DNA of 64,000 nt from Phycisphaerae bacterium. Lineage in GTDB: Bacteria; Planctomycetota; Phycisphaerae; FEN-1346; JAACEH01. The translations under genes were made by a program, and so were the position numbers. The stretch covers positions 35,296 through 99,295 of the forward strand of contig JAAYDY010000105.1 in NCBI GenBank assembly GCA_012729015.1, given 5' to 3'. Each line of letters opens with the position of its first letter. Positions within the stretch are counted from its first letter, which is position 1. Positions 30,611-46,581 of this stretch are shown piece after piece. Below the pieces are notes generated by a model, which saw nothing but the letters and a program-made list of their open reading frames with translations, made no database searches and had not been told where the DNA came from.

Positions 30611-31681
30611 CTACGCCTTCATCGGGCCGGGTGCCTGCCGGAGACGATACGCTCCGGAGTCGCCCCGCCCTCGACCGATGGTTCGCCCCATGGCCACAAT
30701 GCCGGCCTTCACCTGTCGGTCGAATTCGTCCGTTTCCCCGCAAGAGGCCTTGCCGGGATAAATCTCGTACATGGCACGATACGCCGGCGGCGTCAGGTTG
30801 GGCATGACGACGTTGCCGCCGCGAGCCAGCCCGAGTTGTCGCCCGCCCTCGGCATTCAGCGTGGCCAGGGCCGTCGTGCTCGGGATGTTGGCCCTCGGAC
30901 AGACGATTCGCGCCAAGGCCACCGCCTTACAGCCAGTGAGCTCGTCGGCAGGCGCCTGCTCCCCCGGCGGCAGGCACCATGCCTGGCCGTCGCGGCCCAG
31001 GGGCGTGTCCGGGTGTGCGATGAACGGCCCCAGGCCGATCATGTCCAGGTCGAGTTCGCCGAACAGTTCGATGTCCCGAGCCAGATCGTCGAGACTCTGG
31101 CCGGGGATGCCCACCATGACGCCGCTGCCGATCTCGTAGCCCATGGCGCGCAGGTATCGCAGAATCGCCAGCCGGTCGCGAGGCTCCGCCCCCGGTCGCG
31201 CCGGGTGAATCCTCGCGAACAACGCCTTGTTGCTCGTTTCGAACCGAAGCAGGTAGCGGTCGGCCCCGGCGTCGCGCCACAGGGCCAGTTCGTCGTTGGT
31301 CCGCTCGCCCAGACTGAGCGTTATGGCCAAGGGCGTCTCGGCCTTGATGCGGCGGATGACCTCGGCAAGCCAGCGGGCCTCGATGCTCCAGTCTTCGCCC
31401 GATTGCAGGACAACGGTGCCATAGCCGAGAGCAACGGCTTTGTCGGCGGCAGCGAGAATCTCGCCGGCGGTCATGCGATAGCGCGGTAAGCCCGTGCGGT
31501 CGGCCCTCACGCCACAGTAAAGGCATTGACGAGAGCAGTGGTTGGATATCTCGATGAGGCCGCGCAGGTGCACTTCGTCGCCGACACACTCTCGCCGCAC
31601 GTCGTCTGCGTGCTTCCACAACGACTCGAGGCGGCCGGGCTCGGTCTGTCGAAGCCACGAGCGGATGTCGTCATGCGTCAT
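30611..31681 (-). CDS. hydE: [FeFe]-hydrogenase maturase HydE (radical SAM, BioB-like)
   Basis: CSRQCLYCG radical-SAM motif and BioB-like fold. Start at MTHDDIRSWL (ATG 31681). Confidence 0.85.
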   Translation of the reverse strand: MTHDDIRSWLRQTEPGRLESLWKHADDVRRECVGDEVHLRGLIEISNHCSRQCLYCGVRADRTGLPRYRMTAGEILAAADKAVALGYGTVVLQSGEDWSIEARWLAEVIRRIKAETPLAITLSLGERTNDELALWRDAGADRYLLRFETSNKALFARIHPARPGAEPRDRLAILRYLRAMGYEIGSGVMVGIPGQSLDDLARDIELFGELDLDMIGLGPFIAHPDTPLGRDGQAWCLPPGEQAPADELTGCKAVALARIVCPRANIPSTTALATLNAEGGRQLGLARGGNVVMPNLTPPAYRAMYEIYPGKASCGETDEFDRQVKAGIVAMGRTIGRGRGDSGAYRLRQAPGPMKA

Positions 31682-32834
31682 GATCCTGTACCGCCTCGAC
31701 GGCCTGATCGGCCCGGACCTTGCGCGACAGGACGACTGTGAAGGTGCTGCCGACGTCGGGTTCGCTCTCGACGCGAACCTCGCCGCCGTAGAGGGTCGCG
31801 AGCCGGCGGACAATCGACAATCCGAGGCCGCTGCCCAGGATGTTGCGCGTTCGGTCGTTCTTGATCCGGACGAACTCGCCGAACAGTCGCGACGTTTCCT
31901 CTTTGCTCATCCCGATGCCCGTGTCGGTGACGGCGATGGTGATCGTGTCGGCATCGCCGCCGAGCCGCACGTCCACGCGGCCGTTGTCGCGATTGTACTT
32001 CACGGCATTGGAAACAAGGTTGTTCAGGACGATCTCGATCTCGCCTGCGTCGGCCATCATCAGGAGCGGCCCGGACCCGTGAATCTGGAGCGTGATGCTG
32101 CGTGCCCTGGCGTCGGGCATCGCCGTCTCGACAGCGGTATCTGCCAGAGCGCGGACATCGACTTCGGCCAGTTCGCGTTTCTTGCGGCCGGACTCGATGT
32201 GCGTCAGGTCGAGCAGGTCGACGATCAGTTTGCGCATGTGCCGCGTGCGGATCAGGCATCGGTCGAGCATGTGGTCGTAGGTGGCCTGATCGTCGCCGGC
32301 GGTTCGGTCGCGTACAATCTGAAGGTAACCCTCGACGGCGGCCAGGGGCGACTTGAGCTCGTGAGCGACAACGCGGATGAACTCGAACCGGACCTGTCGC
32401 TTCTCCTGGGCGAGGCGGCGGGCCTGTCGGGCCGTGATCAGCGTCTCAGCGGCCCGTCGGATCGTGGTCTTCAGCTCGCTGGGCGTGAAGGGTTTGGCCA
32501 GGAAGTCGTAGGCCCCCTGCTTGATGGCGCTGACGGCCGTCTCGAGCGAGGCGTAGGCGGTGATCATGATCGTGAGCATATGATCGCTGCGTCCGACGTG
32601 GTCCAGGACGTCGAGGCCCGACATGCCGGGGAGCTTGTGATCGAGCAGGAGGATGTCGGGCTCGGAGGCGCGGATCATCTCAAGGGCCTTCTCGCCGGTG
32701 TCGGCGGTCTCGACGGTGAACGCCACGCGCTGGTCGATGTCCGTGAGGTCGAAATGGCAGTCGCCCAGCGCGCGGGCCACCCCCATCCGCATCCCCGGTT
32801 CGTCGTCCACGACCAGCACGCGAAGCGTCTCCAC
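31671..32834 (-). CDS. Hybrid two-component protein: N-terminal receiver domain fused to HisKA-HATPase histidine kinase
   Basis: VLVVDDE…ILLLDHKLPGMSGLD receiver. H-box VAHELKSPLAAV. G1/G2 ATPase boxes (DTGIGM, GSGLGLSIV). Confidence 0.8.
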   Translation of the reverse strand: METLRVLVVDDEPGMRMGVARALGDCHFDLTDIDQRVAFTVETADTGEKALEMIRASEPDILLLDHKLPGMSGLDVLDHVGRSDHMLTIMITAYASLETAVSAIKQGAYDFLAKPFTPSELKTTIRRAAETLITARQARRLAQEKRQVRFEFIRVVAHELKSPLAAVEGYLQIVRDRTAGDDQATYDHMLDRCLIRTRHMRKLIVDLLDLTHIESGRKKRELAEVDVRALADTAVETAMPDARARSITLQIHGSGPLLMMADAGEIEIVLNNLVSNAVKYNRDNGRVDVRLGGDADTITIAVTDTGIGMSKEETSRLFGEFVRIKNDRTRNILGSGLGLSIVRRLATLYGGEVRVESEPDVGSTFTVVLSRKVRADQAVEAVQDHDA

Positions 32835-32838
32835 GAGC

Positions 32839-33228
32839 CTACCCTTTCACCAGTCGGCCGATTTCCCGCTTGAGTTGCTCGAACCGCACGGGCTTGTCCA
32901 GAATCGCGTCGGCCTTCACCCAGGCCCGCTCGCCGTCGGTCGTAGCATCGAACTTGATGCCCGTCTCGGCGGCCACAGCGGTGACCATGACGACCGGCAG
33001 CGCGGCGTCCTTGGCCTTGATCTCGTGGCAAAGGACAAACCCGTCGTCCATGTGCTCCATCATCAGGTCCACCACAACGAGATCCGGCCGGCCCTGCGCC
33101 AGGGCCTTGCGGGCCTCGGCGAGGCCGTCGGCCTCGACCACCGCAAAACCGGCGGCCTCCAGTTGCACGCGCAGCTGGGCGCGGAAATCCATGTCGTCGT
33201 CTACTACCAGAATCGTTCGTGCAGCCAT
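32839..33228 (-). CDS. Single-domain CheY-like response regulator
   Basis: 129 aa, ILVVDDD…DLVVVDLMMEHMDDG receiver domain only. Real CDS is the C-terminal part of the 525-aa ORF. Confidence 0.8.
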   Translation of the reverse strand: MAARTILVVDDDMDFRAQLRVQLEAAGFAVVEADGLAEARKALAQGRPDLVVVDLMMEHMDDGFVLCHEIKAKDAALPVVMVTAVAAETGIKFDATTDGERAWVKADAILDKPVRFEQLKREIGRLVKG

Positions 33229-33293
33229 GCTCTTCGTCCTGCCTTTCACTGTCGCAGCGTCGCCGGAGGGATGCGCCGGGAGCGCCGCAGCCC

Positions 33294-35336
33294 TCAGACC
33301 TTCACCGTCCTGGCCTCGGCCCGACGCGGCAACGTCACCGTGAACGTTGTCCCCGTGGGGCCGGCCTTCGGATCGGCATTGGATCGCACGCGGATGTCTC
33401 CGCGGTGCATCTTCACGATACCGTAACTGACAGCCAATCCCAAGCCTGTTCCTTCGCCGATCTGCTTCGTCGTGAAGAACGGCTCGAAAATCTTCTCCAG
33501 GTTCTCCTTGGCGATGCCGACGCCCGTGTCGGTCACCTCGATCTGGACTCGGTCGCCCTGGGCCCGCGTCGTGACGGTCAGCGTGCCGCCCTCCGGCATG
33601 GCGGCCACGGCGTTGCTGGCCAGGTTGGTCAGCACCTGGACCATCTGGTCGCGGTCCAGGTCCACGACGGGATCCGCTAACTGGTGATCCACAACGACCT
33701 TGACGTTCTCGGGCATCGCAACGCCGCCGAGCATCGCCTCGACCAGTTCCTTCGTGTCGGTCGGCTCGTGGACCACCTTGTTCTGCCGGGCGAAGTGGAG
33801 CAGGCCGGAGACGATCTTCTTGCAGCGATCTGCCTGCTCGGCCACCATGGCCAGGTCGCCGCGAAGCCGCGCGTCTTTCGGACACTCGTCCAGCAACAGG
33901 TGCGCGTACATCAGGACCACGCCGAGCGGGTTGTTCACCTCGTGGGCGATACCGGCGGCAAGCTGTCCCATGCTGGCCAGCTTCTCGGATTGGATCAGGG
34001 CGGCCTGCGCACTGGCCAGTTGGTCGTTGCTGACAGCCAGGTCCTTGACCGCGCGGCGGAGCTGCTCGATCGTGTAGGGCAGGCACATTTCGCTTTCGGC
34101 CAGGCCCTTGAAGATAGCGATGGCGTGCTCGCGGCAGGTGTCGTAGCCGCAGGCGCCGCAGTTCAGCTCGTCCTGCGGGGTGAACTTGCCCATTCGCGCC
34201 AGGATGGTGCGGATGTCGTCGTCGTCCAGGGGCGCCGGCATGCGCTGATCGTTGGAGGCGAACACGCGGCCCAGGTCGAGGTCGGCCATGTCGTCCATCG
34301 CGCGGCGCCAGGCGTCCATGTCGAACTGCTCGCGGCGGCGACGCACGTACTGGCTGACGCGCGAACGGCGGCGGAAGAGGGCATCGGTGCTGCTGGTGCC
34401 GGCGCCCATGATACACCCGTTGCAGCAGAGGACTTCCAGGAGCCGCGCGTCGAGGTCGCCCGACTTGAACTCGGCGATGGCCTCGACGAAATTGGTGCGC
34501 CCGTCGGCCGCGACGACCTGGCCGGTCATCAGATCCTCGCTGATGCCGGCGGCCTGGAGCATGCCGCGACTGATGGGGAAGAGGGCCCCTGCCCCTCCGA
34601 GCGGCGGATCAAAGTCCGACGGCTCGGCCTTGGACGCGGCGAGGCCGGCTTCGCGCAGCATGTCCTGCAACTCGATGAACGTCAGGACGGCATCGACCTC
34701 GTGGGCCACGCGGACGCTGGCGGCCTCGCCTTTTTTGGCGATGCATGGACCGACGAAGACGACCTTCAGATCCGGGCCGTGCAGCCGCCTCAGGACGCGG
34801 GCCGTGGCGATCATCGGCGACACGATGGGCGCCAATGACGCCACGACCTCGGGGTGATAGCGTTCCACGTATCCGAAAATCGCCGGGCAGCTCGTGGCGA
34901 TGTACCGCTTGTCGGGATTCTCCTGGAGCAGCCGGCGGTAGCGGTCGGCCACCAGGTCGGCGCCGAAGGCCACCTCATTGACGAGGTCGAAGCCCAGGGC
35001 GCGGATCATGCCGACGACCCTGAGCGGATCGACGCCGGCGAACTCGGCCGGGAAACTCGGCGCGACGATGGCTGCGACGCGAGAGGGCCCTTTCAGGATC
35101 GCCCTGACGTCGGCCGTGGAATCCAGAACCTGTTTGGCCCGCTGGCTGCAAACGCGGACGCAGTTTCCGCAGCCGATGCAACGCTGTGGAATGACGTCGG
35201 CCTGGCCGTCGGCGATGCGGATGGCCTTGGCCGGGCATTCGCGCACGCACGTATAGCAGACGCGGCAGCGCTCCTTGACCGTCGTGACCAGAGGAAGGTT
35301 CTGTGCATGCTTCAACCGACGTTCCTCACTTGACAA
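33294..35336 (-). CDS. Sensory-type [FeFe]-hydrogenase (HydS-like H-domain) fused to a histidine kinase
   Basis: N-terminal 2x[4Fe-4S] ([24 protein letters not shown]). H-cluster motifs L1 ATSCP, L2 [10 protein letters not shown]3 [14 protein letters not shown] Cx2Cx4Cx16C motif (CGACGYDTC…EMC). Then HisKA ([12 protein letters not shown]) and HATPase_c. TTG start at 35336, overlapping hydA by 11 nt. Confidence 0.85.
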
Positions 35337-37047
35337 CTTCGCGCGGTGCGTAATGCGTGTGCAGCAGGTGATGGCTCTTCTCGCCCAGGGGCTTGCCGAG
35401 GAACTCCTCGTAGAGCCGCTGGACTTCCTTGTTGGCGTGCGACGTCCGGAGGGCGGCGTCGCGGTCGATCTTGTACAGGGCCCTCATTCGGGCACGGACC
35501 TGCTCGGGCTGCGTCTGGTACGGTTGTCCGCCGCCGGCGATGCACCCGCCGGGGCAGGTCATGACCTCGATGAAGTGCAGGTCGTTGCGTCCGGCGCGGA
35601 TCTGTTCGAGCAGCCGGCGGGCGTTGGCCAGGCCACTAACGACGGCGACGCCCACGTCCAGCCCGTCAACATTGAGGCGGGCCTCTTTAACGCCCTTGGC
35701 GCCGCGAACGGCCTGGACCTTCAGTTCGTCCATTTCGCGGCCGGTGATCAGCCAGTACGCCGTGCGGATGGCGGCCTCCATGACGCCGCCGCTGGCACCG
35801 AAGAGCTTGCCGGCGCTGGACCGCTCGCCGAACGGCGTGTCGGCGGAGTCGGGCTCCAGCGAAGCCAGGTCGATGCCTCGCATGTGAATCAGGCGCGCCA
35901 CTTCGCGCGTCGTCAGGACGGCGTCGATGTCGGGATTGCCGCTCTGGGTCATCTCGGGGCGGCCGGCCTCGAACTTCTTGGCTGTGCACGGCATGATCGC
36001 CACGCTGAAGATGCGCGACGGGTCCAGCCCGGCACGCTGGGCGAAATGTGTCTTGATGATTGCGCCGAGCATCTGCTGCGGGCTCTTGCACGTGGACAGG
36101 TTCTCGATGAAGTCCGGGAAGAACTGCTCGACGAATTTGATCCAACCCGGAGAGCAACTGGTCATCATCGGCAGCCGGCCGCCGGTCTTGACGCGTTGGA
36201 CAAACTCGCTGGCTTCTTCCATGATCGTCAGGTCGGCGCTGAACGAGGTGTCGAACACACGGTCGAATCCAAGGGCTCGCAGGGCCGCCGTGAGGGTGCC
36301 GGCCATGTCGATGCCGGGCTTCAGGCCGAACTCCTCGGCCACCGTGACGGACACTGCCGGTGCGTGCTGCACGACCACCGTCATGTCGGGATCGTTCAGC
36401 GCATCGACCACCAGCTTGAGGTGACTCTGTTCTCGCAGCGCCCCGGTCGGGCAGACCATGATGCACTGGCCGCAGTTGATGCAACTGGACACGTTGAGCC
36501 CATCGTTGAAGGCGGTGGTGACCTGGGTGTGACATCCTCGGCCGACGAAATCAATGGCCGAGACGCCCTGGATTTCCTCGCATACGCGGACGCAGCGGCC
36601 GCACAGGATGCACTTGGCCGGATCGCGCACGATGGACGGGCTGGAGAGGTCCATCTTGTCGTCGTTCTTGGCGCCGGTGAATCGTCGCTCGCGAACGCCG
36701 AGCTCCTCGGCGAGCGACTGGAGCTGGCAACTGCCGCTGCGGACGCAGAAGAGGCAGTCGTCCGGATGGTTCGACAGGAGCAGTTCGACGATCGTCTTGC
36801 GGGCCCTGAGGACGCGCGGCGAGTGGGTCTGAACCTTCATGCCCGCAGTCACGGGGAATGCGCAACTGGGGACGAGGCCCCGTTGTCCTTCGACCTCGAC
36901 GACGCACATGCGGCACGCGCCGCTGGGAAACAGCTCGTCCATATGGCAGAGCGTCGGCACCTTGATGCCGGCTCGTTTCAGCGTGTCCAGCAGCATTTCG
37001 CCCGGCTGGGCTTCCACTGTCCGATGATTGACTTCAATGGTAACCAC
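35326..37047 (-). CDS. hydA: [FeFe]-hydrogenase catalytic subunit HydA (M3-type, NuoG-like N-terminus)
   Basis: 2Fe-2S, His-ligated 4Fe-4S and 2x[4Fe-4S] domains at the N-terminus. H-cluster motifs TSCSPGW (L1 variant), MPCTAKKFE (L2), EVMTCPGGCIAGGG (L3). GTG start with GGGAG upstream. Confidence 0.85.
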   Translation of the reverse strand: MVTIEVNHRTVEAQPGEMLLDTLKRAGIKVPTLCHMDELFPSGACRMCVVEVEGQRGLVPSCAFPVTAGMKVQTHSPRVLRARKTIVELLLSNHPDDCLFCVRSGSCQLQSLAEELGVRERRFTGAKNDDKMDLSSPSIVRDPAKCILCGRCVRVCEEIQGVSAIDFVGRGCHTQVTTAFNDGLNVSSCINCGQCIMVCPTGALREQSHLKLVVDALNDPDMTVVVQHAPAVSVTVAEEFGLKPGIDMAGTLTAALRALGFDRVFDTSFSADLTIMEEASEFVQRVKTGGRLPMMTSCSPGWIKFVEQFFPDFIENLSTCKSPQQMLGAIIKTHFAQRAGLDPSRIFSVAIMPCTAKKFEAGRPEMTQSGNPDIDAVLTTREVARLIHMRGIDLASLEPDSADTPFGERSSAGKLFGASGGVMEAAIRTAYWLITGREMDELKVQAVRGAKGVKEARLNVDGLDVGVAVVSGLANARRLLEQIRAGRNDLHFIEVMTCPGGCIAGGGQPYQTQPEQVRARMRALYKIDRDAALRTSHANKEVQRLYEEFLGKPLGEKSHHLLHTHYAPREVVK

Positions 37048-37062
37048 AGTATGACTCCCGAC

Positions 37063-39030
37063 TTATTCCACGGTAATGGCATTGAACCGACAGGCCGCGA
37101 CACACGAGCCGCAAGCGACGCACTTTTCCGGAACGATGTAGTGTGGGCTCTTCGGTGCGCCCATGATGGCGCCGCTGGGACACTGGCGAGCGCAGAGCGT
37201 GCACCCCTTGCACTTGTCCGGATCGATCTTGTACACAAGCAGTTCCGTGCAGACTCCCGCGGGGCAGCGACGCTCGTAGATGTGAGCCTCGTACTCGTCG
37301 CGGAACCATCGGAGCGTGCTCAGCACGGGGTTCGGGGCGGTCTGCCCCAGGCCGCAGAGGCTGGCGTCACGAATGACCTCGGCCAGCCGTTCGAGGTTCA
37401 TCACGCCCTTGAAGCGTTCGAGGGCGGCGGGCCCCTTCTCGGTGCGGTAGCCCTGTGTGATGCGTTGGAGGATTTCGAGCATGCGGCGCGTGCCCTCGCG
37501 ACACGGGATGCACTTGCCGCAGCTTTCGCGCTGGATGAAGTCCATGAAGAACTTGGCCACATCGACCATGCAGGTGTCTTCGTCCATGACGACGAGGCCG
37601 CCGCTGCCCATCATAGCGCCGACGGTCTTGAGGGACTCGTAGTCGATCAGGATGCCCAGGTGCTGGGTCGGGATGCAGCCGCCCGACGGGCCGCCGATCT
37701 GGACGGCCTTGAAGGCCTTGCCGTTGGGAATGCCGCCGCCGATGTCCAGGACGATCTGGCGGATGGGCGTGCCCATGGCCACTTCGACCAGGCCCGTGCG
37801 CGACACCTTGCCGGAGAGGGCGAACACCTTCGTGCCCTTGCTGGTCTGAGTTCCCGTGGCGGCGAACCAGTCGGCGCCCTTGGAGACGAGCATCGGCAGG
37901 TTGGCCAGGGTCTCGACGTTGTTGATGACCGTGGGCTTGCCGAACAGGCCGCTGACGGCCGGATAGGGCGGCCTCGGCCGCGGCATGCCGCGTTTGCCCT
38001 CGACGCTGTTGATCAGGGCAGTTTCCTCGCCGCAGACGAAGGCGCCGGCACCCTGCTTGAGCATGATTTCGAGGTCGAACCCGCTGTCGAGGATATTGCG
38101 GCCGAGCAGGCCGTAGGCCTTGGCCTGGGCGATGGCCTGGTTCAACCGCTCAATGGCCAGGGGATACTCGGCGCGGATGTAGACGTAGGCCTTGTTGGCG
38201 CCGATGGCGTAGGCGGCCAGGGCCATGCCCTCGAGCAGGCGATGCGGATCGCCCTCGATGACGGCCCGGTCCATGAAAGCACCGGGGTCGCCCTCGTCGG
38301 CGTTGCAGATCAGGTACTTCTGGTCGGCGGGCTGCTGGAGAGCGAACCGCCACTTGCGGCCGGTCGGGAACCCGCCGCCGCCGCGGCCTCGCAGGCCGCT
38401 GCGCTCGACCGTCGCGCAGAGGTCGTCGCGCGTCATGCCGCGAAGCGCGTCGGCGAAGGCGCGGTACCCGCCGCGGGCGATGTACTCTTCGATGCTCTTC
38501 GGGTCGATGCGGCCGATGTCCACGAGGACCCAGCGCGTCTGCGGGCCGAAGAACGGGTGCTCGTCCAGGAACGGCACGCCCGACCAACTTTCCAGGGTGG
38601 GGTGGCGGTGCTGGCCGATGAGGCCTTCCTGCGGCACGTTGCCCGCCAGCACGGCGTCCAGCAGGGCCGGCACCTTGTCGGACGTGACCTCGCCGAAGGA
38701 CAACCGCGTGCGGCCGGGCAGTTGCACGTCCACCATGGGTTCCACGGCGCAAAGGCCAATGCACCCGACCTCGACGACGTCGGCATCGACGCCCTTGGCG
38801 GCCAGATGGGCCCGGACGGCTTCGAGGGTCTTGCCGGCGCCGGCACCCAGGCCACACGTGCCGGCCCCGACGAAGACGCACGGACGCTCAATCACGTCCC
38901 GGCGGAGGCAGGCCAGCAGGGCTTCGTCCTGGACGGGATCGCCGGCGATATACGCAAGAAGCTCCGGCGACGGGGCGGAGCCCACGCGCCGGCGTGTTCT
39001 GTCTTGATTTCGTTCACTTACTGTGGACAT
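37063..39030 (-). CDS. hydB: NuoF-like NADH-binding flavoprotein subunit of [FeFe] hydrogenase (HydB/HndC-like)
   Basis: N-terminal thioredoxin-like 2Fe-2S. NuoF core (GRGGGGFPTGRKW, CNADEGDPGAF, ESCGKCIPCR). C-terminal 2x[4Fe-4S]. Confidence 0.85.
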   Translation of the reverse strand: MSTVSERNQDRTRRRVGSAPSPELLAYIAGDPVQDEALLACLRRDVIERPCVFVGAGTCGLGAGAGKTLEAVRAHLAAKGVDADVVEVGCIGLCAVEPMVDVQLPGRTRLSFGEVTSDKVPALLDAVLAGNVPQEGLIGQHRHPTLESWSGVPFLDEHPFFGPQTRWVLVDIGRIDPKSIEEYIARGGYRAFADALRGMTRDDLCATVERSGLRGRGGGGFPTGRKWRFALQQPADQKYLICNADEGDPGAFMDRAVIEGDPHRLLEGMALAAYAIGANKAYVYIRAEYPLAIERLNQAIAQAKAYGLLGRNILDSGFDLEIMLKQGAGAFVCGEETALINSVEGKRGMPRPRPPYPAVSGLFGKPTVINNVETLANLPMLVSKGADWFAATGTQTSKGTKVFALSGKVSRTGLVEVAMGTPIRQIVLDIGGGIPNGKAFKAVQIGGPSGGCIPTQHLGILIDYESLKTVGAMMGSGGLVVMDEDTCMVDVAKFFMDFIQRESCGKCIPCREGTRRMLEILQRITQGYRTEKGPAALERFKGVMNLERLAEVIRDASLCGLGQTAPNPVLSTLRWFRDEYEAHIYERRCPAGVCTELLVYKIDPDKCKGCTLCARQCPSGAIMGAPKSPHYIVPEKCVACGSCVAACRFNAITVE

Positions 39031-39499
39031 CGGCAGAGGCCTTTCCTCGATACGAATCCAGAATCTTCCTGACCGAATCCGGCGTCAGTTTCGCATGAAA
39101 CTCGCCGTTGACGCACATCACCGGAGCCAGGCCGCAAGCCCCGATACAAGCCACGACCTCCAGGCTGAACAGGCCGTCGCGGGTCGTTTCGCCCGGCTTG
39201 AGCTTCAGCTCGCGCTTCACGGCTTCCAGAATGCCGGCCGACCCCTTCACGTGGCAGGCCGTGCCGCGGCAGAGCTGAATGTGGAAGCGTCCCTGCGGCT
39301 GAAACCGGAACTGGTTGTAAAAGGTGGCCACGCCATAGACCTTGCTGGCCGGCAACCCCAGATGCTCGCCTACGCGGGCGACCGATTCTCGCGACAGGTA
39401 GCCCTCGACCTGCTGCACCTTCTGCAGGATCGGAATGAGGGCATCGCGACCGGCGCCGGCATAGTCCTTGAGAATTCCGCCTACGTCGACCTTTGTCAC
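39014..39499 (-). CDS. hydC: NuoE-like 2Fe-2S subunit (HydC/HndA-like)
   Basis: Cx4C…Cx3C thioredoxin-like ferredoxin (LCRGTACHVKG…ACIGACGLAP). GTG 39499 with AGGAAGG upstream. Upstream part of the ORF is artefactual. Confidence 0.75.
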   Translation of the reverse strand: MTKVDVGGILKDYAGAGRDALIPILQKVQQVEGYLSRESVARVGEHLGLPASKVYGVATFYNQFRFQPQGRFHIQLCRGTACHVKGSAGILEAVKRELKLKPGETTRDGLFSLEVVACIGACGLAPVMCVNGEFHAKLTPDSVRKILDSYRGKASADVHSK

Positions 39500-39510: not shown

Positions 39511-40152
39511 CTAACTGACCGACACCTTGTGGGCTCGCTTCTGGCGAGCGAAGAACGCCACCTTCTCCAGAGAGGTGGTCACATCGATATCTTCGACATA
39601 CACATGCTCCGGCACGCGAATCGCCACGGGAGCGAAGTTGAGCAGTCCACGGACGCCGGCCCGCACAAGCACATCGGCCACGTCCTGGGCGGCCTCGGCC
39701 GGAACGGCCACCATGGCCACCCGAATGCCTCTGTCGTCGACGACCGAGGCCATGTCTTCGATCGGATAGCACCGACATCCATGCACCACGCGATTGGTCT
39801 TGGAGCCGTCCTGATCGAACGCAGCCACCATCTTGAGCTTGGGCCGGCGGCCCTCGAAGTAGGCCATCATCGCGCGGCCGATGTTGCCGACACCCACCAG
39901 GGCAACCGCCTCCGGCTCGTCAGCATCCAGGAAGAGCCCGATATGCTCAATGAGCTCGGGCACGTCATATCCCCTGGCCGGACTCCCGGAACAGCCGACC
40001 GTCATCATGTCGCGACGCACCTGGGCAGCGGTAACGCCGGCGGCAGACGCAAGTTCATGTGAGAACACGTGTCTTGTGCCACGGTTGCGCATGGCAACCA
40101 GGAGCCTTCGATAGAGGCTCAGCCGTCCTACGGTTCGCTCGGGAGTCATCAT
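39511..40152 (-). CDS. rex: Redox-sensing transcriptional repressor Rex
   Basis: Winged-helix N-terminus plus Rossmann NADH-binding domain (LVGVGNIGRA). 213 aa. Confidence 0.85.
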   Translation of the reverse strand: MMTPERTVGRLSLYRRLLVAMRNRGTRHVFSHELASAAGVTAAQVRRDMMTVGCSGSPARGYDVPELIEHIGLFLDADEPEAVALVGVGNIGRAMMAYFEGRRPKLKMVAAFDQDGSKTNRVVHGCRCYPIEDMASVVDDRGIRVAMVAVPAEAAQDVADVLVRAGVRGLLNFAPVAIRVPEHVYVEDIDVTTSLEKVAFFARQKRAHKVSVS

Positions 40153-40197
40153 AGGGGCCTCGTTGCCAGGCAGCCAAGCACCGTTACGCGCCTCACG

Positions 40198-40215
40198 CTG
40201 TGAATCATTTCACAA
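40198..40215. promoter_or_regulatory. Putative Rex operator (cTGTGAA-TCAT-TTCACAA) ~45 nt upstream of rex
   Basis: Inverted repeat matching the Rex consensus TTGTGAA-N4-TTCACAA at 17/18 positions, read directly from the sequence. Confidence 0.6.
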
Positions 40216-40960
40216 GCATATTATCGGTTTTCGGCCCGGATTTCAACCCAAAATTCGCCCCATTCTTGACATTTGGTGGAAATCCCAGGGGGCTCTGCCC
40301 TCTCCAAGCGGGGCTCCTGCGGGGCGGACGATTCGCTTCCTGTCACTGCCCAGAACGCACTCGCCCTGGTGGGCCGTCACGTCTGAATCTGAACGTGCCA
40401 TGAATGTGAGAGTGTCGTCTAAAGGTGTGCGACTCGGTGCACGGAGCTCGCTCTGACATCGGCTGTGCGGCCGCTGCAAGGTGAGCCCTCAACGTCCGTT
40501 CGCGTCCCTAACGGCCTGCCAGACATCCTGGCCACGCGAACAGGCACGCGTGCGGCAACTCGCGCCGCAGCGCACTGACACCGCCGTCGTGGACAGCCGG
40601 GAGGGAATCTGGTGAGCCAACCACCCGGTCTTGCTATGGCAGGTGCAGCATGCGGGCACGCGGCGTGGTGCTGCGGACAGACGCCGGCACGGCAGGCGCG
40701 AACGGCCGTTGGATCGGGCAGCGTCGATGTGTTGCGTTATTGCAGCCAGTGGGAATTGTTTGTGATTATGCAATGAAGGGGGTTGCCATGGGCGCGCGAC
40801 CCGGTATAATTCCGAGCAGTACCTGGGGATCGACTTCGCAATTCGCCCGTTGCCGCGGCGACGGGATCTGGAACAGCAGAACGGGAAAACTATCCGAGTT
40901 CGTCCAGAGAGGCGCCTGTTGACAACACAAGGCGCGCAGGATTTCGAAGTAACCCCCTGA

Positions 40961-40978
40961 TTGTGAAATGGTTCACAA
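40961..40978. promoter_or_regulatory. Putative Rex operator (TTGTGAAATGGTTCACAA) ~125 nt upstream of hoxF
   Basis: Perfect match to the Rex consensus palindrome TTGTGAA-N4-TTCACAA. Confidence 0.7.
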
Positions 40979-41104
40979 GGGAATGTTGGTCGCCGTGTCA
41001 ATGAGTATGAGTCGCTGTTGGTGACGAGTACCTCCGGGCGCTGGCAAGATGGTTTGGGGCGTGTTTCAACGGTTCCCTGGTTTCGATGCGATTGAGGGCA
41101 CTGC

Positions 41105-42916
41105 ATGAGCAAGTCACTCGAAGCAGACGTCAAGAAGATCTGCAAAGCCTGCGGCAACGACCGAACGAGGATGATGGACATCGTTCGATCCGTCCAGGAG
41201 CAATGCGGATGCGTTTCGGGCGAGGCGATGGACCTGATCGCCCGGGAGGTGTCGTGCCATCGGGTTGAGGTTGAGAGCGTGGTCTCGTTCTACGCCTTCC
41301 TCTCCACGCGGCCCAAAGGCAAGGTGGTCATCCGCCTGTGCGACGACGTAATCGACGAGATGAAGGGATCGGATCAGGTGGCGGCGGCGCTGAAGACCGA
41401 ACTGGGGATTGATTTCGGCGAGACGACGGCCGACGGCGCCATCACCCTCGAACACACGCCGTGCATCGGCATGTGCGATCAGGCGCCGGCGGCGATGGTG
41501 AATGACGAAGTGGTCACTTACCTGTCCGGGGATGCGGCGCGGAGCATGGTGCGGTCGCTCCGCGAGCACATGGATCCGAAGAAACTGGTCGGGCGTTTCG
41601 GCGACGGCAACAACGGCCACGATCTGGTGCGATCCATGGTGCATAACAACATCCGCCAGTCGGGCGAGGTGGTGCTGGCGCCGCTGGCGGAGGGGGCGGC
41701 ACTGAAGAACGCCCTGGCGATGAGTCCGGCGGAGGTGATTCGCGACGTGAAGACGGCGCGGCTTCGCGGCCGTGGCGGCGCAGGGTTTCCTACGGGAATG
41801 AAATGGGAGTTTACGCGGAACGCCCCCGGCACACAGAGATACGTGCTGTGCAACGCCGACGAGGGCGAGCCGGGCACGTTCAAGGACCGGGTCATTCTGA
41901 CCGAGCGTCCGGACGTGCTGATTGAGGGCATGACCATTGCCGGGTACGCCATTGGATCGGATACGGGCGTGCTCTACCTGAGGGCGGAATACGCCTATCT
42001 TCGTTCGTTCCTGGAGCAGGCGCTGCACGACCGCCGCAACAAGGGCCTGCTGGGCAAAGACATCTGCGGCAAGAAGGGTTTCAATTTCGACATCCGGATC
42101 CAGATGGGGGCCGGAGCGTACATTTGCGGCGAAGAAACGTCGCTGATCAGCAGCGTCGAAGGGTTGCGGGGCGACCCGAAGAATCGCCCCCCCTTCCCCG
42201 CCCAGAAGGGCCTGCATCAGTGCCCGACGACGGTCAACAACGTGGAGACGTTCTGCTGCGTGTCGCGGATCCTGGAGAAAGGCCCCGGCTGGTTCGCGCA
42301 GATGGGGTCGAAGGGGAGCCCCGGCACCAAGGTGCTGAGCATCTCCGGCGACTGCCATCGGCCTGGGGTCTACGAGGTGCCGTTCGGCATCAAGCTGAGC
42401 GACGTGCTGAAGCTCTGCGGCGCGGAGGATGCCGCCGCGGTGCAAGTGGGCGGCCCGAGCGGCACGATGGTGTCGCCGGCGGAGTTCGGGCGGACGATCT
42501 GCTACGACGATCTGGCCACGGGCGGCTCGGTCATGGTGTTCGGCCCGAAACGGAACCTGCTGAAGGTCGTGCGGAAATTCCTGGAGTTCTTCATCGAGGA
42601 GAGCTGTGGCTACTGCACCCCGTGTCGCGTCGGGAACGTGTTGCTGCTGGAACGGCTCAACCGGATTCTGGACGGCAGGGGCGAGCCTTCGGATCTGCCC
42701 TACCTGGAGCGTCTTGGCCAGACGATCAAGACGGCCGCCCGGTGTGGGCTCGGCCAGACGTCGCCCAACCCGGTGCTGACAACACTGAAGAGCTTCCGCT
42801 CGGCGTATGAGTCGCTGGTGAAGGAGGCTCCGGACGGCCTTCAGCCATCGTTCGACATAGGTGCGGCCCTGGGGGATGCGAAAACGATCACCGGGCGCGA
42901 GTCGGTCCACTTTTAG
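41105..42916 (+). CDS. hoxF: NAD(H)-linked [NiFe] hydrogenase diaphorase subunit HoxF (NuoE-like N-domain fused to NuoF-like core)
   Basis: GRGGAGFPTGMKWEF, CNADEGEPGTFKD, ESCGYCTPCR motifs. N-terminal thioredoxin-like domain. Confidence 0.85.
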   Translation: MSKSLEADVKKICKACGNDRTRMMDIVRSVQEQCGCVSGEAMDLIAREVSCHRVEVESVVSFYAFLSTRPKGKVVIRLCDDVIDEMKGSDQVAAALKTELGIDFGETTADGAITLEHTPCIGMCDQAPAAMVNDEVVTYLSGDAARSMVRSLREHMDPKKLVGRFGDGNNGHDLVRSMVHNNIRQSGEVVLAPLAEGAALKNALAMSPAEVIRDVKTARLRGRGGAGFPTGMKWEFTRNAPGTQRYVLCNADEGEPGTFKDRVILTERPDVLIEGMTIAGYAIGSDTGVLYLRAEYAYLRSFLEQALHDRRNKGLLGKDICGKKGFNFDIRIQMGAGAYICGEETSLISSVEGLRGDPKNRPPFPAQKGLHQCPTTVNNVETFCCVSRILEKGPGWFAQMGSKGSPGTKVLSISGDCHRPGVYEVPFGIKLSDVLKLCGAEDAAAVQVGGPSGTMVSPAEFGRTICYDDLATGGSVMVFGPKRNLLKVVRKFLEFFIEESCGYCTPCRVGNVLLLERLNRILDGRGEPSDLPYLERLGQTIKTAARCGLGQTSPNPVLTTLKSFRSAYESLVKEAPDGLQPSFDIGAALGDAKTITGRESVHF

Positions 42917-42940: not shown

Positions 42941-43654
42941 ATGAGCGAAACGATCACGTTCACAATCGACGGTAAGGAAGTCAGTGCCCAGCCGGGCCAG
43001 ACGATCATGCAGGCCGCCGACGCCGCGGGCATCTACATTCCACGTTTGTGCGCCTTCGAAGGCCTCGTGCCGCACGGCAGTTGCCGCGTCTGCACGGTGA
43101 TGGTCAACGGGCGTGCGCAGGCGGCATGCACGCAGCCGGTGGCCGACGGCATCGTCGTCGAGAACGATACCGAGAAGCTGCTGGCGATTCGACGGGACAT
43201 CATCGAGATGCTCTTCGTCGAGGGCAACCACTACTGCATGTTCTGCGAGAAGAGCGGCAACTGCGAGCTTCAGGCGTTGGCGTACCGGTTCGGCATCGCC
43301 GCTCCGAAGTATCCGTACCTTTTCCCGAAGCGGGAGATCGACGCCACTCACCCGGACATTTTCATTGATCGCAACCGTTGCGTTCTGTGCGGCCGGTGCG
43401 TTCGGGCGTCACGCGACGTGGACGGCAAGGGCGTGTTCGAGTTTGTGGGTCGCGGCCCGCAGAAGCGTGTGGCCGTGAATGCGGAGGCGAACCTGGCCGA
43501 CACGGATCTGAAGACGAGCGACAAGGCCGTCGAGGTGTGCCCGGTCGGGGCCATTCTCAGGAAACGGGTAGGCTATGCCGTTCCGGTGGGCAGACGCCGG
43601 TACGACCACAAGCCGATCGGTTCGGACATTGAACAGGCTGCATCGAAGAAATAG
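42941..43654 (+). CDS. hoxU: HoxU diaphorase Fe-S subunit (NuoG N-terminal-like: 2Fe-2S plus 4Fe-4S)
   Basis: 2Fe-2S CxxC…C motif near the N-terminus. HxxxCxxC and CVLCGRCVRAS clusters. ATG preceded by AAGGGG. Confidence 0.85.
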   Translation: MSETITFTIDGKEVSAQPGQTIMQAADAAGIYIPRLCAFEGLVPHGSCRVCTVMVNGRAQAACTQPVADGIVVENDTEKLLAIRRDIIEMLFVEGNHYCMFCEKSGNCELQALAYRFGIAAPKYPYLFPKREIDATHPDIFIDRNRCVLCGRCVRASRDVDGKGVFEFVGRGPQKRVAVNAEANLADTDLKTSDKAVEVCPVGAILRKRVGYAVPVGRRRYDHKPIGSDIEQAASKK

Positions 43655-43667
43655 GGGCTATTGTCAC

Positions 43668-44213
43668 ATGGCAAAAGCGAAAGTTGCAACGACCTCGCTG
43701 TGCGGCTGTTTCGGTTGCCACATGTCCCTCCTGGACATCGACGACCGGATTCTGAAGCTCGTGGAGTTAGTGGATTTCAACAAGTCGCCGATCAACGACA
43801 TCAAGGAATTCACTGAGCGATGCACGGTGGGCCTGATCGAGGGCGGCTGCTGCAACGAGGAGAACGTCCGGGTGCTTCGCGACTTCCGCAAGCATTGCGA
43901 CATTCTGATCTCGGTGGGCGACTGTGCGACGATGGGCGGCATTCCGGCCATGCGGAACACTATCCCGCTCAAGGAGTGCCTCGACGAAGCGTATCTGAAC
44001 GGCCCGACCGTGCATAACCCGAGCGGACAGATACCGAACGATCCCGAGATCCCGCTGCTGCTGAATCGCGTCTACCCGTGCCATGAGGTGGTGAAGATCG
44101 ACTACCACCTGCCTGGGTGCCCGCCGTCGGCCGACACGCTGTGGGAGGCCCTGGTGGCCCTACTGACCGATAAGCCCGTCGCGCTGCCGTACGAGCTGAT
44201 CAAGTACGACTGA
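43668..44213 (+). CDS. hoxY: [NiFe] hydrogenase small subunit, group 3 (HoxY)
   Basis: CGCFGCH, GDCATMGG, PGCPP motifs of short group-3 small subunits. Start at MAKAKV (ATG 43668). Confidence 0.85.
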   Translation: MAKAKVATTSLCGCFGCHMSLLDIDDRILKLVELVDFNKSPINDIKEFTERCTVGLIEGGCCNEENVRVLRDFRKHCDILISVGDCATMGGIPAMRNTIPLKECLDEAYLNGPTVHNPSGQIPNDPEIPLLLNRVYPCHEVVKIDYHLPGCPPSADTLWEALVALLTDKPVALPYELIKYD

Positions 44214-44237: not shown

Positions 44238-45677
44238 GTGGCAAGCACAAAACAGAAGCGAGTGATCATCGAGCCCGTGACCCGAGTGGAGGGCCACGGC
44301 AAGGTCAGCATTCTGCTGGACGAGAAGAACACCGTGACGCAGGCTCGGCTGCACATCGTCGAGTTCCGCGGCTTCGAACGGTTCGTCCAGGGGCGGCCGT
44401 TCTGGGAAGTGCCTGTGCTGGTGCAGCGTCTGTGCGGCATCTGCCCGGTCAGCCACCACCTGGCCGCCGCAAAGGCCATGGACTGGATCGTCGGCGGGGA
44501 GAAGCTGACGCCGACGGCGGAGAAGATGCGACGGCTGATGCATTACGGCCAGACGTTCCAGAGCCACGCGCTGCACTTCTTCCACCTGGCCTCGCCCGAT
44601 CTCTTGTTCGGCTTCGACGCCGACGTGGCGATTCGCAATGTGATCGGCGTGGCGGCGAAGTACCCGGACCTGGCCGTCCAGGGCGTGATGATGCGGAAGT
44701 ACGGGCAGGAAATCATCAAGGCCACGGCCGGCAAAAAGATCCACGGCACGGGCGCCATCCCGGGCGGCATCAACAAGAACCTGTCAATCGCCGAGCGTGA
44801 CGTGTTCCTGAAGGACATCGACCAGATGCTCACGTGGTGCCGCGGCGCGCTGAAGGTGGCCGTGGACTACACCACGGCGAACCTGGCGACGGCGGCCCCG
44901 TTCGGATCGTTCGATTCGAATCACCTGTCGATCGTCCGCAAGGACGGCTCGATGGACCTGTACGACGGGAACCTGCGCGCCATCGACGCCCAGGGCAAGA
45001 AGATTCTGGACCAGGTCGCGCCGCAGGACTACTACAAAGTCATCGCCGAGGAAGTGCGACCGTGGTCGTACATGAAGTTCCCGTTCATCAAGAGCATCGG
45101 CCCGAAGGACGGCTGGTACCGGGTGGGCCCGCTGGCCCGCATCAATACATGCGACTTCATCGACACGCCCGAAGCCGAGGCCGCCCGCAAGGAGTTCATG
45201 AAGCTGACCGACGGCAAGCCCAACAACATCACGATGGCTTACCATTGGGCGCGGATGATCGAGCTGCTGCACTCGGGCGAGAAGATTCGCGATCTCCTGA
45301 ACGACAAGGATCTCCAGGGCACCGACCTGGTGACCAAGGGGGATCGTCGGGACGAGGGTATTGCCATTGTCGAGGCGCCGCGCGGGACGCTGTTCCATCA
45401 TTACCGCGTGAACAAGGACGACCAGGTGGTCATGGCGAACCTGATCGTCTCGACGACGAGCAACAACGAGCCGATGAACCGGGCGGTCCAGAAGGTGGCC
45501 CAGGATCACATTTCCGGCAAGCCGGAGATCACCGAAGGGCTGCTGAATCACATTGAGGTGGCCATCCGGGCCTACGACCCGTGCCTGTCGTGTGCGACGC
45601 ACGCCCTGGGGCGGATGCCGCTCGAGGTGATCCTGGTCGACAGCACAGGAACCGTGATCGACCGGAAGCGCAAGTGA
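44238..45677 (+). CDS. hoxH: [NiFe] hydrogenase large subunit, group 3d (HoxH)
   Basis: L1 RLCGICPVSHH. C-terminal DPCLSCATH followed by a protease-cleaved extension. GTG start with GGAG upstream. Confidence 0.9.
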   Translation: MASTKQKRVIIEPVTRVEGHGKVSILLDEKNTVTQARLHIVEFRGFERFVQGRPFWEVPVLVQRLCGICPVSHHLAAAKAMDWIVGGEKLTPTAEKMRRLMHYGQTFQSHALHFFHLASPDLLFGFDADVAIRNVIGVAAKYPDLAVQGVMMRKYGQEIIKATAGKKIHGTGAIPGGINKNLSIAERDVFLKDIDQMLTWCRGALKVAVDYTTANLATAAPFGSFDSNHLSIVRKDGSMDLYDGNLRAIDAQGKKILDQVAPQDYYKVIAEEVRPWSYMKFPFIKSIGPKDGWYRVGPLARINTCDFIDTPEAEAARKEFMKLTDGKPNNITMAYHWARMIELLHSGEKIRDLLNDKDLQGTDLVTKGDRRDEGIAIVEAPRGTLFHHYRVNKDDQVVMANLIVSTTSNNEPMNRAVQKVAQDHISGKPEITEGLLNHIEVAIRAYDPCLSCATHALGRMPLEVILVDSTGTVIDRKRK

Positions 45678-46189
45678 TGGATGCGGCGAAGACGGGCATC
45701 CTGGTGATCGGGTTCGGCAATCCTGGGCGGTTGGACGATGGTCTGGGCCCTGCCCTGGCGTCGCGGATCGAAGGGATGAACCTGCCGAACGTGACGGTAG
45801 ACTCGGACTACCAGTTGACCGTGGAGGACGCGGCGGAGGTGGCGCGGCACGACGTGGTGGTCTTCGCCGACGCGGATGTGGGCGGGCCGGAGCCGTTCTA
45901 TGTGCGGCGACTGAGACCGAGCGGAGGAACGTTGAGTTTCAGCACGCACAGCGTGACGCCGGCCGCGGTACTGACGCTGGCCCGCGAGTTGTTCCGTTCT
46001 GAGCCGCAGGGATTCCTGCTGGGCATCCGCGGCTACGAGTTCAACGAGTTCGGTGAGCGGCTGTCTGAGCGGGCCGTGGAGAATCTTGAGGCCGCAGCGA
46101 CGTACCTTGCGGCCGCACTGAGAACGGGTAGGATCGAAGAGATTCGGGCCGACGGAGACCTGCCGCGAGGCGGCTCGGCCAAGTCCTGA
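45677..46189 (+). CDS. hoxW: Hydrogenase maturation endopeptidase (HoxW/HybD/HycI family)
   Basis: GxGN…D…H protease fold (VIGFGNPGRLDDGLG). ATG overlaps the hoxH stop by 1 nt. Confidence 0.8.
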   Translation: MDAAKTGILVIGFGNPGRLDDGLGPALASRIEGMNLPNVTVDSDYQLTVEDAAEVARHDVVVFADADVGGPEPFYVRRLRPSGGTLSFSTHSVTPAAVLTLARELFRSEPQGFLLGIRGYEFNEFGERLSERAVENLEAAATYLAAALRTGRIEEIRADGDLPRGGSAKS

Positions 46190-46203: not shown

Positions 46204-46581
46204 ATGCGCGACGGCAAGTACGTGATCCTCTGCATCGATGACGACGACGATATCCTGCTGGTGCTGAAGACGGTCCTCGAGGCGAATGGCTATGTGTTCG
46301 CCGGGGCCTCCAGCGCCGAACAGGGACTGAAGAAGCACGAGGAGGTGTCGCCGGACCTGATCATTGTGGACCTGATGATGGAGGAGATCGATGCCGGGAC
46401 GAGCTTCGTGCGTGAGCTGAAGGCACGCGGCTGCAAGGCGCCGATCTACATGCTGAGCAGCGTCGGCGACGACCTGAACCGCTCGATCGACTACTCGGCC
46501 CTGGGACTGTCGGGCGTGTTCCAGAAGCCGATCGAGAACGACAAGCTTCTGGCTTTGCTGAAGACGAAGCTGAAGAAGTAG
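46204..46581 (+). CDS. Single-domain CheY-like response regulator
   Basis: ILCIDDDDD…DLIIVDLMMEEIDAG receiver. Paralogous to the regulator at 32839..33228. Confidence 0.8.
   Translation: MRDGKYVILCIDDDDDILLVLKTVLEANGYVFAGASSAEQGLKKHEEVSPDLIIVDLMMEEIDAGTSFVRELKARGCKAPIYMLSSVGDDLNRSIDYSALGLSGVFQKPIENDKLLALLKTKLKK

Follow-up and report, generated by a model that had tools for sequence, protein, structure and literature searches.

Two predicted Rex operators in the divergent spacer between rex-hydCBA and hoxFUYHW of an uncultured Phycisphaerae bacterium

The DNA analyzed here, hereafter called the window, is a 64-kb stretch from a metagenome-assembled Phycisphaerae genome. It harbors a gene for the NADH-sensing regulator Rex, followed on the same strand by hydCBA, which would encode an [FeFe] hydrogenase, and, transcribed divergently from these, hoxFUYHW, which would encode an NAD-linked [NiFe] hydrogenase. 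The 952-bp spacer between rex and hoxF (positions 40153–41104) contains two palindromes, termed here Rex boxes 1 and 2, for which a sequence-only reading of the window had proposed a role as Rex operators, with autoregulation of rex and the [FeFe] genes and coregulation of the divergent [NiFe] genes. This core proposal is supported by all of the computational tests that we ran, which comprise the statistics of the sites, the integrity of the Rex protein, footprinting across four lineages, recurrence at rex and hoxF in unrelated contigs, and discrimination from CRP sites. The central features are:

Rex box 1, 40198–40215, forward-strand read cTGTGAATCATTTCACAA, read in the rex orientation TTGTGAAATGATTCACAG, matching 13 of the 14 specified consensus bases
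Rex box 2, 40961–40978, TTGTGAAATGGTTCACAA, matching 14 of the 14 specified consensus bases
rex, 39511–40152, minus strand, 213 residues
hoxF, 41105–42916, plus strand, NuoE–NuoF fusion diaphorase subunit

The consensus used throughout, TTGTGAA-N4-TTCACAA, is an 18-bp inverted repeat with 14 specified bases, to which box 1 and box 2 have one and zero mismatches, respectively. The coordinates and letters given previously for the two palindromes are confirmed, and their distances from the genes, estimated at ≈45 and ≈125 nucleotides (nt), measure 45 nt from box 1 to the rex ATG (40152, minus strand) and 126 nt from box 2 to the hoxF ATG (41105). Both palindromes match the consensus, but the earlier scores of 17/18 and 18/18 had counted the four N positions as matches and are replaced by the values listed above; likewise, both sites of the earlier count of two are real, but a further conserved weak box (box 1′) and a degenerate one (box 3) have to be added, as discussed below. 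In a scan of the 64-kb window, boxes 1 and 2 are the sole Rex matches at ≤1 mismatch and at ≤3 mismatches alike. None of 100 dinucleotide-preserving shuffles contains any match at ≤1 mismatch, and base composition gives an expectation of 0.0008 matches in 64 kb and a probability of ≈7e-11 for two or more matches within 952 bp. Each read in the orientation of its own gene (TTGTGAAATGaTTCACAg for one and TTGTGAAATGgTTCACAa for the other), the two boxes are identical at 16 of 18 bases, most of the four-base spacer included.

The predicted Rex protein consists of an N-terminal winged-helix DNA-binding domain (PF06971, residues 4–49, 52.7 bits with a cut-off of 27) and a C-terminal Rossmann NAD(H) domain (PF02629, residues 79–176, 57.6 bits with a cut-off of 22.3), and scores on the NCBIfam models NF003995 (206.6, cut-off 126), NF003996 (175.9, cut-off 138), and NF003994 (167.6, cut-off 130). 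It aligns along its full length to solved Rex proteins from Bacillus subtilis, Streptococcus agalactiae, Thermotoga maritima, and Thermus (2VT2, E-value 4e-36 over residues 3–203; also 3KEO, 5ZZ5, and 3IKT). The T. maritima Rex–DNA–NAD+ structure is the source of our list of contact residues (PMC8836258). R46 and R47 in the recognition helix take the place of the base-reading R48 and K49 of the T. maritima protein, an Arg–Arg pair that is also found in B. subtilis Rex, and R10, S31, Q44, G56, and Y62 are other DNA contacts that are kept. The NAD(H) pocket harbors a GVGNIG sequence, and N90, I91, A94, Y98, D113, and K118 align with T. maritima N92, I93, A96, Y100, D115, and K120 (6/6). As judged from this alignment, the window Rex retains the residues for reading DNA and for binding NAD(H).

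A protein search retrieved relatives in which Rex is 87–91% identical to that of the window and in which the same divergent layout of hoxF and rex-hydCBA is found; together with the window, these comprise four lineages, with spacers of 952 bp (window), 931 bp (L168 group), 881 bp (L173 group), and 477 bp (L175 group) that are pairwise 55–66% identical. Six contigs that encode an identical Rex (L081–L086) have a spacer that is 100% identical as well and are thus uninformative on conservation. The islands conserved in all four lineages correspond to box 1 (40191–40215), a TATAAT hexamer (40796–40810), box 2 (40963–40977), and the hoxF ribosome-binding site. Every specified core position of box 1 is invariant, and the box 2 island stands in diverged flanks. 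We regard this footprint as the strongest evidence that both boxes would be functional. Around them, the spacer harbors the following features:

Auxiliary degenerate Rex-like box 1′, 40181–40198, GCGTGAGGCGCGTAACGG in the rex orientation, 7 of 14 bases, abutting box 1 at +17 nt
Predicted rex promoter TTGAAA-17-TAATAT, 40218–40246, minus strand, sigma-70 type, from a promoter scan
AT-rich block upstream of the rex promoter, 40259–40289, CCCATTCTTGACATTTGGTGGAAATCCCAG, conserved in the three long-spacer lineages, its left part also in L175
Filler, 40281–40774, ≈490 bp, nonconserved and noncoding
Putative hox promoter TTGCCA-16-TATAAT, 40783–40810, plus strand, sigma-70 type, 11 of 12 consensus bases, predicted start near 40817
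Rex-like box 3, 40824–40841, TGGGGATCGACTTCGCAA, 10 of 14 bases, at the predicted hox start site
GC-rich hairpin CCCGTT-N8-GACGGG, 40846–40865, plus strand, 6 bp, in the predicted hox leader
ATG-proximal hoxF leader, 41056–41104, plus strand, conserved, with the Shine–Dalgarno sequence GAGGG in the ATG-proximal 45 nt

On the rex side, the predicted promoter is retained as TTGAAA-17-TATTAT in L168 and L173 and as TTGCAA-17-TATGAT in L175, and box 1 begins 1–2 nt past the −10 hexamer in the four lineages (2 nt in the window), so that it would cover the predicted rex start site near 40211 on the minus strand. A spacing of 0–4 nt between the −10 hexamer and the box that follows it is found in 11 of 11 rex-hydCBA loci from Phycisphaerae, other Planctomycetota, and Hydrogenedentales. 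These loci are the four lineages, the distant Phycisphaerae L177, L179, and L180 (Rex 64–66% identical), L003 (Planctomycetota), L001 and L002 (Hydrogenedentales), and L117, and every one of them, across several phyla, also harbors a strong box accompanied by a weak box at exactly +17 nt. In the window, the half-site cores of the weak box are GTTA (40183–40186) and TCAC (40193–40196), or GTGA and TAAC in the rex orientation, and no other stretch of the rex leader from the ribosome-binding site up to the flank of box 1 is invariant in the four-lineage alignment; across the 11 loci, the weak-box cores conform to GTGA...T[A/C]AC. The strong-plus-weak 17-nt tandem is an observation of this analysis and suggests a composite operator at rex. 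The AT-rich block at 40259–40289 may be an upstream promoter (UP) element or an activator site. An inverted repeat around the rex −35 hexamer (40238–40251 and 40272–40285) was set aside, as chance is a plausible origin by a rough hand estimate and only its arms are partly conserved.

On the hox side, TTGCCA-16-TATAAT is most likely the hox promoter. Its TATAAT is invariant and its −35 hexamer nearly so in the four lineages, it is the only conserved promoter on this side, and the distance from its −10 hexamer to the hoxF ATG is 283–294 nt in all four. Because this conserved promoter lies ≈150 nt upstream, box 2 most likely falls within a transcribed leader of ≈290 nt, at about +144, where it would work as a roadblock or together with other boxes. 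The expectation that both operators would be found in a promoter context is borne out by prediction for box 1, at the conserved rex −10, and not for box 2, which lies outside any recognizable core promoter. At box 3, two-thirds of the columns are invariant in the three long-spacer lineages, and the orthologous position in L173 reads TTGTGAAGAATTTCGCAA, with one mismatch to the Rex consensus. A conserved block, GGCrC...TTTCG, is found at 40930–40947 just upstream of box 2.

The four hox leaders share a weak consensus RNA structure (−27.8 kcal/mol over 300 nt). All 24 cells of the hairpin at 40846–40865 pair in the four lineages, and two of the pairs have changed on both sides. This conservation is equaled by 62 of 500 shuffles and is only suggestive, not being significant with four sequences; this hairpin is not an intrinsic terminator, since no U-tract follows it. 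Near the hoxF start, a CCCU stretch within 41056–41104 could pair with the Shine–Dalgarno sequence; in this block no pair is changed on both sides, and its conservation does not extend to more distant hoxF relatives.

The association of Rex boxes with hoxF extends beyond the four lineages. Among 70 hoxF relatives that are 65–74% identical and come with upstream sequence, eight have a Rex box at ≤2 mismatches within 400 nt upstream, with 0.12 found in Markov simulations, an enrichment of ≈65-fold; from the other direction, eight of the 10 Rex boxes in 567 kb lie in hoxF upstream windows (P = 1.4e-9). Some hoxF loci (e.g., L090) have the Rex box a few nucleotides past a −10-like hexamer. In L117, L146, L154, and L158, rex is the divergent neighbor of hoxF and encodes a protein 30–48% identical to the window Rex. 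In three of these loci (L146, L154, and L158; Rex 30–33% identical), the spacers are 195–560 bp long, and that of L158 harbors a Rex box with one mismatch.

When 1.7 Mb of related loci were searched with only the core, TGTGA-N6-TCACA, 17 matches were obtained, nine of which are Rex-type at all four of the positions that discriminate Rex from CRP sites (positions 1, 7, 12, and 18 of the 18-mer) and none of which is CRP-type. Many of these core matches, including those in Gemmatimonadales, lie 35–45 nt upstream of rex genes. At the same positions, box 2 is Rex-type at 4/4 and box 1 at 3/4. The Gemmatimonadales rex genes (L036, L041, L047, L051–L054, and L056) are found with a perfect 18-bp Rex box, commonly TTGTGAAATAATTCACAA, 35–45 nt upstream, a predicted arrangement that shows canonical Rex autoregulation well beyond Firmicutes and Actinobacteria.

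The spacer had been described as unusually long, and at 952 bp it is indeed the longest noncoding-like stretch in the window; it lacks the third-position GC periodicity that is strong in the flanking genes, which marks it as noncoding. Its length is accounted for by the ≈490-bp filler, with conserved elements at both ends. Among three lineages, the share of invariant columns in the filler does not rise above noise (21%). In L175 and L176, the counterpart of window positions 40259–40280 is joined directly to the counterpart of 40775–40798, and since the filler is absent from this otherwise collinear spacer, it represents either an insertion or a deletion in the L175/L176 lineage. The right-hand 56 nt of the filler are common to L168, with no similarity to L173; a mobile or repeated element was rejected as its origin, as no second copy of the filler is found in the window and similarity to the fillers of relatives is limited to these 56 nt. 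The filler contains a 15-nt inverted repeat (40490–40504 and 40697–40711).

The further proposal that the spacer holds other elements, such as a small RNA or inputs for the CheY-like regulators, did not find support, the central ≈490 bp being unconserved and noncoding, with no Rfam match, ordinary folding, and no sigma-54-like site. A hidden gene or pseudogene was rejected on the lack of codon periodicity, the lack of a Pfam match to any of the five open reading frames in the spacer, and the lack of blastn or tblastx similarity in the first 166 loci. A small RNA or riboswitch was rejected in turn, as Rfam at E-values up to 1 returned only a meaningless match to a eukaryotic long noncoding RNA and the spacer has no terminator-like site; folding z-scores of −0.73 for the hox leader and −0.21 and −0.05 for the filler are no better than those of shuffles. 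As for a sigma-54 promoter serving a response regulator, none is found in the spacer, the window-wide count is that expected by chance, and the block at 40930–40947 misfits sigma-54 spacing.

The gene names given previously on both sides of the spacer, rex-hydCBA and hoxFUYHW, are upheld by Pfam and NCBIfam profiles and by matches to relatives of solved structure. From rex outward on the minus strand, the genes are:

hydC, 39014–39499, minus strand, NuoE-like [2Fe–2S] subunit, starting 11 nt past the rex stop; also a gene call on the identical contig L081
hydB, 37063–39030, minus strand, NuoF-like flavoprotein with a C-terminal 2×[4Fe–4S] region
hydA, 35326–37047, minus strand, [FeFe] hydrogenase catalytic subunit with the H-cluster domain and N-terminal Fe–S domains
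HydS-like sensory [FeFe]-hydrogenase domain fused to a HisKA/HATPase histidine kinase, 33294–35336, minus strand, overlapping the hydA stop
Receiver-only response regulator, 32839–33300, minus strand, after the HydS–kinase gene
Hybrid receiver–kinase, 31671–32834, minus strand, after the receiver-only regulator
hydE, 30611–31813, minus strand, [FeFe] maturase
hydG, 29170–30594, minus strand, [FeFe] maturase
Lyase_1/aspartase-like gene, 27738–29153, minus strand, after hydE and hydG

On the plus strand, hoxF is followed by:

hoxU, 42941–43654, plus strand, diaphorase module
hoxY, 43668–44213, plus strand, small subunit, start set by analogy with a 181-residue gene call in L167
hoxH, 44238–45677, plus strand, [NiFe] large subunit
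hoxW, 45581–46189 (limits of the open reading frame), plus strand, maturation protease (TIGR00072, 66.3 bits, cut-off 47.45)

The genes rex, hydC, hydB, and hydA are tightly packed, with small gaps or overlaps. On NF040763, which models NADH-dependent [FeFe] hydrogenases, HydA reaches 841 bits (cut-off 765), and by domain make-up HydABC is consistent with a multimeric NADH-linked [FeFe] hydrogenase of the bifurcating type. The HydS–kinase gene is probably cotranscribed with hydA, as it overlaps the hydA stop, and with the regulators that follow it would probably provide an H2-sensing two-component input; such a fusion is also found after hydA in L001, L066, and L071. The genes hydE and hydG and the Lyase_1/aspartase-like gene may lie within the Rex-controlled transcript. 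In a more distant Phycisphaerae rex-hydCBA locus (L180/L181, 5111–8392), a 1093-residue protein joins HydB to a GltD/NfnB-like pyridine-nucleotide oxidoreductase domain.

On the plus strand, the HoxF–HoxU and HoxY–HoxH modules and HoxW are encoded in one gene string, which fits the NAD-linked soluble [NiFe] hydrogenase (Hox/SH) type, group 3d, a placement made by gene content and nearest solved relative. HoxF aligns to 5XF9_A, and the best solved relative of HoxH is the NAD-reducing hydrogenase 5XF9_D (E-value 2e-175, 587 bits), followed by the bifurcating NiFe enzyme 7T2R. The true start of hoxW is probably after 45677, as the family match begins at residue 41. A receiver-only (CheY-like) regulator gene (46204–46581, plus strand) comes right after hoxW. 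Farther along, a gene for an HdrA/GltD-like flavoprotein with a C-terminal MvhD/FlpD domain adjoins that for a methylenetetrahydrofolate reductase (50016–52121 and 52814–53761, respectively, both plus strand), and an iron–sulfur protein with Fer2_4, GltD-like, and NuoG-like regions is encoded at 55490–57145 (minus strand); none of these nearby redox genes has a Rex box at ≤3 mismatches.

From established Rex biology we infer the following mechanism, in which the binding of Rex, its release by NADH, the points where transcription starts, the action of box 2 as a roadblock, and the extents of the operons are predictions. When the NADH/NAD+ ratio is low, dimers of Rex would cover box 1, and probably also the abutting box 1′, and would thereby shut off rex-hydC-hydB-hydA, an effect that would probably extend to the gapless genes for the HydS-type kinase and the two response regulators, and possibly to hydE and hydG. 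Binding of Rex to box 2 in the hoxFUYHW leader, and perhaps to box 3 where transcription is predicted to start, would stop hox transcription or lower it. As NADH builds up, Rex would come off its sites and the cell would produce the two NADH-linked hydrogenases jointly, so that surplus reducing power could exit as H2, with the kinase-fused sensory hydrogenase probably adding an H2 signal.

That both palindromes are operators of the adjacently encoded Rex, which would control rex-hyd and hox, is the reading to which we assign a probability of ≈0.75. The two sites exist and are nonrandom, form conserved islands, and recur at orthologous genes, and the promoters near them are conserved. Several points weigh on the other side. 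Three of the 10 compared T. maritima DNA-contact positions are changed in the window Rex (K43 to T41, R60 to P58, and G61 to A59), and its glycine-rich wing is divergent. The position of box 2 downstream of the sole conserved hox promoter is not that of classic occlusion; a candidate proximal hox promoter with TTGACA at 40919 was rejected, as it has no acceptable −10 hexamer and is not conserved. As it is palindromic and would be transcribed with the leader, box 2 could instead owe its conservation to an RNA hairpin. As 62 of the 70 hoxF relatives lack a Rex box at ≤2 mismatches, the link between Rex and hox is lineage-specific, and our box scan gives the members of the regulon within the 64-kb window.

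Some of these points would be explained if only box 1 worked, in a local autoregulation of rex-hydCBA, with box 2 weakly bound or without effect on hox. The placement of box 2 at about +144 from the only conserved promoter, the nonconserved proximal TTGACA, and the many hoxF relatives without a box all point this way, but box 2 is a perfect consensus match and a conserved island in four lineages with diverged flanks, Rex boxes are enriched upstream of hoxF, rex is repeatedly the divergent neighbor of hoxF, and a Rex-like box, with one mismatch in L173, is found at the predicted hox start; we consider this explanation improbable. A role of box 2 as a 7-bp hairpin in the hox leader RNA, acting in stability or processing rather than as a protein site, is somewhat less probable again. 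The hairpin does appear in both the minimum-energy and the consensus structures of the predicted leader, yet its GTGA and TCAC cores are invariant with no pair changed on both sides, its outer pairs are broken in L168 and its innermost pair in L173, the full leader does not fold more stably than shuffled sequences (the z-score of −0.73 above), and the 16/18 agreement with box 1 and the exact consensus of the adjacent regulator argue for a protein site.

The 10-base core of both boxes, TGTGA-N6-TCACA, is also the classical CRP core, with the same spacing, so that a regulator of the CRP/FNR family might bind them; the consensus of Escherichia coli CRP is AAATGTGATCTAGATCACATTT. This we regard as very unlikely, as the discriminating positions of the boxes are Rex-type at 4/4 and 3/4, the 17 core matches include nine that are fully Rex-type and none that is CRP-type, and the sites track rex, lying 35–100 nt upstream of it in Phycisphaerae, Hydrogenedentales, and Gemmatimonadales. 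Chance, finally, might be suspected because the spacer is richer in AT, with a GC content near both boxes (48–55%) below that of the genes, but this explanation is already refuted by the shuffles (0/100), the probability of ≈7e-11, and the conservation in four lineages.

With control of both gene strings by Rex as the preferred reading, a broader proposal can be made, for which we put the odds slightly short of even. Rex would be dedicated to the local control of a portable module in which two hydrogenases vent NADH, in Planctomycetota and neighboring uncultured phyla. It would control Hox/SH directly and use a +17 composite operator that is shared across phyla, as well as a leader operator ≈144 nt past the hox start that would act as a roadblock or together with the start-site box 137 bp away.

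In Cupriavidus, Hox/SH enzymes are regulated by HoxA with the HoxBC/HoxJ H2 sensor, and in cyanobacteria by LexA or AbrB-type proteins; Rex is not known to be among their regulators. The window operon shares with the SH of Hydrogenophilus thermoluteolus (PDB 5XF9) and with Cupriavidus necator hoxFUYHW the order hoxF-U-Y-H-W and the NuoE–NuoF fusion in HoxF. In the literature that we searched, we found no paper tying Rex to hoxF, to a bidirectional hydrogenase, or to Phycisphaerae, with a comparative study of Rex regulons (doi 10.1128/JB.06412-11) lying outside the coverage.

The closest tested system is that of the Firmicute Caldicellulosiruptor bescii, in which gel shifts showed Rex binding ahead of rex itself, hydG, and the genes for the [FeFe] Hyd and [NiFe] Ech enzymes (PMC6391272). 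There, as predicted here from sequence, one NADH-sensing Rex represses itself, a multimeric NADH/ferredoxin-linked [FeFe] hydrogenase, and a [NiFe] hydrogenase, and the operators are of the TTGTGAA-N4-TTCACAA type, 39–181 nt upstream of the start codons (PMC6391272). The [NiFe] enzyme of C. bescii is the membrane-bound ferredoxin-dependent Ech and the genes are scattered, whereas in this uncultured member of the Phycisphaerae (Planctomycetota) the [NiFe] enzyme would be a soluble NAD-linked Hox/SH and both operons are divergent neighbors around rex. With the Rex proteins and Rex operators (ROP) of Streptomyces coelicolor, B. subtilis, Staphylococcus aureus, and T. maritima, the window system shares the two-domain architecture, the Arg–Arg/Lys pair of the recognition helix, the NAD(H) pocket, and an 18-bp inverted repeat (PMC2883068, PMC8836258). 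The S. aureus consensus, TTGTGAAW4TTCACAA (PMC2883068), fits both boxes except for a G in the spacer. Canonical Rex targets are mainly respiratory and fermentation genes, and the window Rex differs from the canonical proteins by its divergent wing and the three changed contacts.

Control of bifurcating [FeFe] hydrogenases by Rex and HydS has been proposed for Ruminococcus albus and for the Hnd enzyme of Solidesulfovibrio fructosivorans (PMC10084766). Those cases, themselves predictions like ours, resemble the window in that a multimeric NADH-linked [FeFe] hydrogenase has a predicted Rex site at its promoter and is accompanied by a HydS-type sensory hydrogenase, which is thought to provide an H2 input. 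In the window, by contrast, a single gene encodes the sensory domain as a fusion with a histidine kinase, response-regulator genes come after it in the gene string to which rex belongs, and the control region is shared with a second hydrogenase, Hox. New in this case would be the phylum, a target of the Hox/SH type, the placement of box 2 in the leader, and the conserved +17 tandem box; the type of switch is ordinary, and the understanding of how Rex works is unchanged.

With this finding, the well-studied Rex redox switch would come to include Planctomycetota, in the uncultured and environmentally abundant Phycisphaerae, and the soluble NAD-linked Hox/SH [NiFe] hydrogenase would become a new class of Rex target. 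For annotation, the Rex box would become usable in predicting regulons of H2 metabolism in metagenome-assembled genomes far from Firmicutes and Actinobacteria. For the biology of these organisms, it would offer a simple picture of when fermenters vent reductant as H2, in which a single NADH signal turns on the [FeFe] and [NiFe] hydrogenases together.

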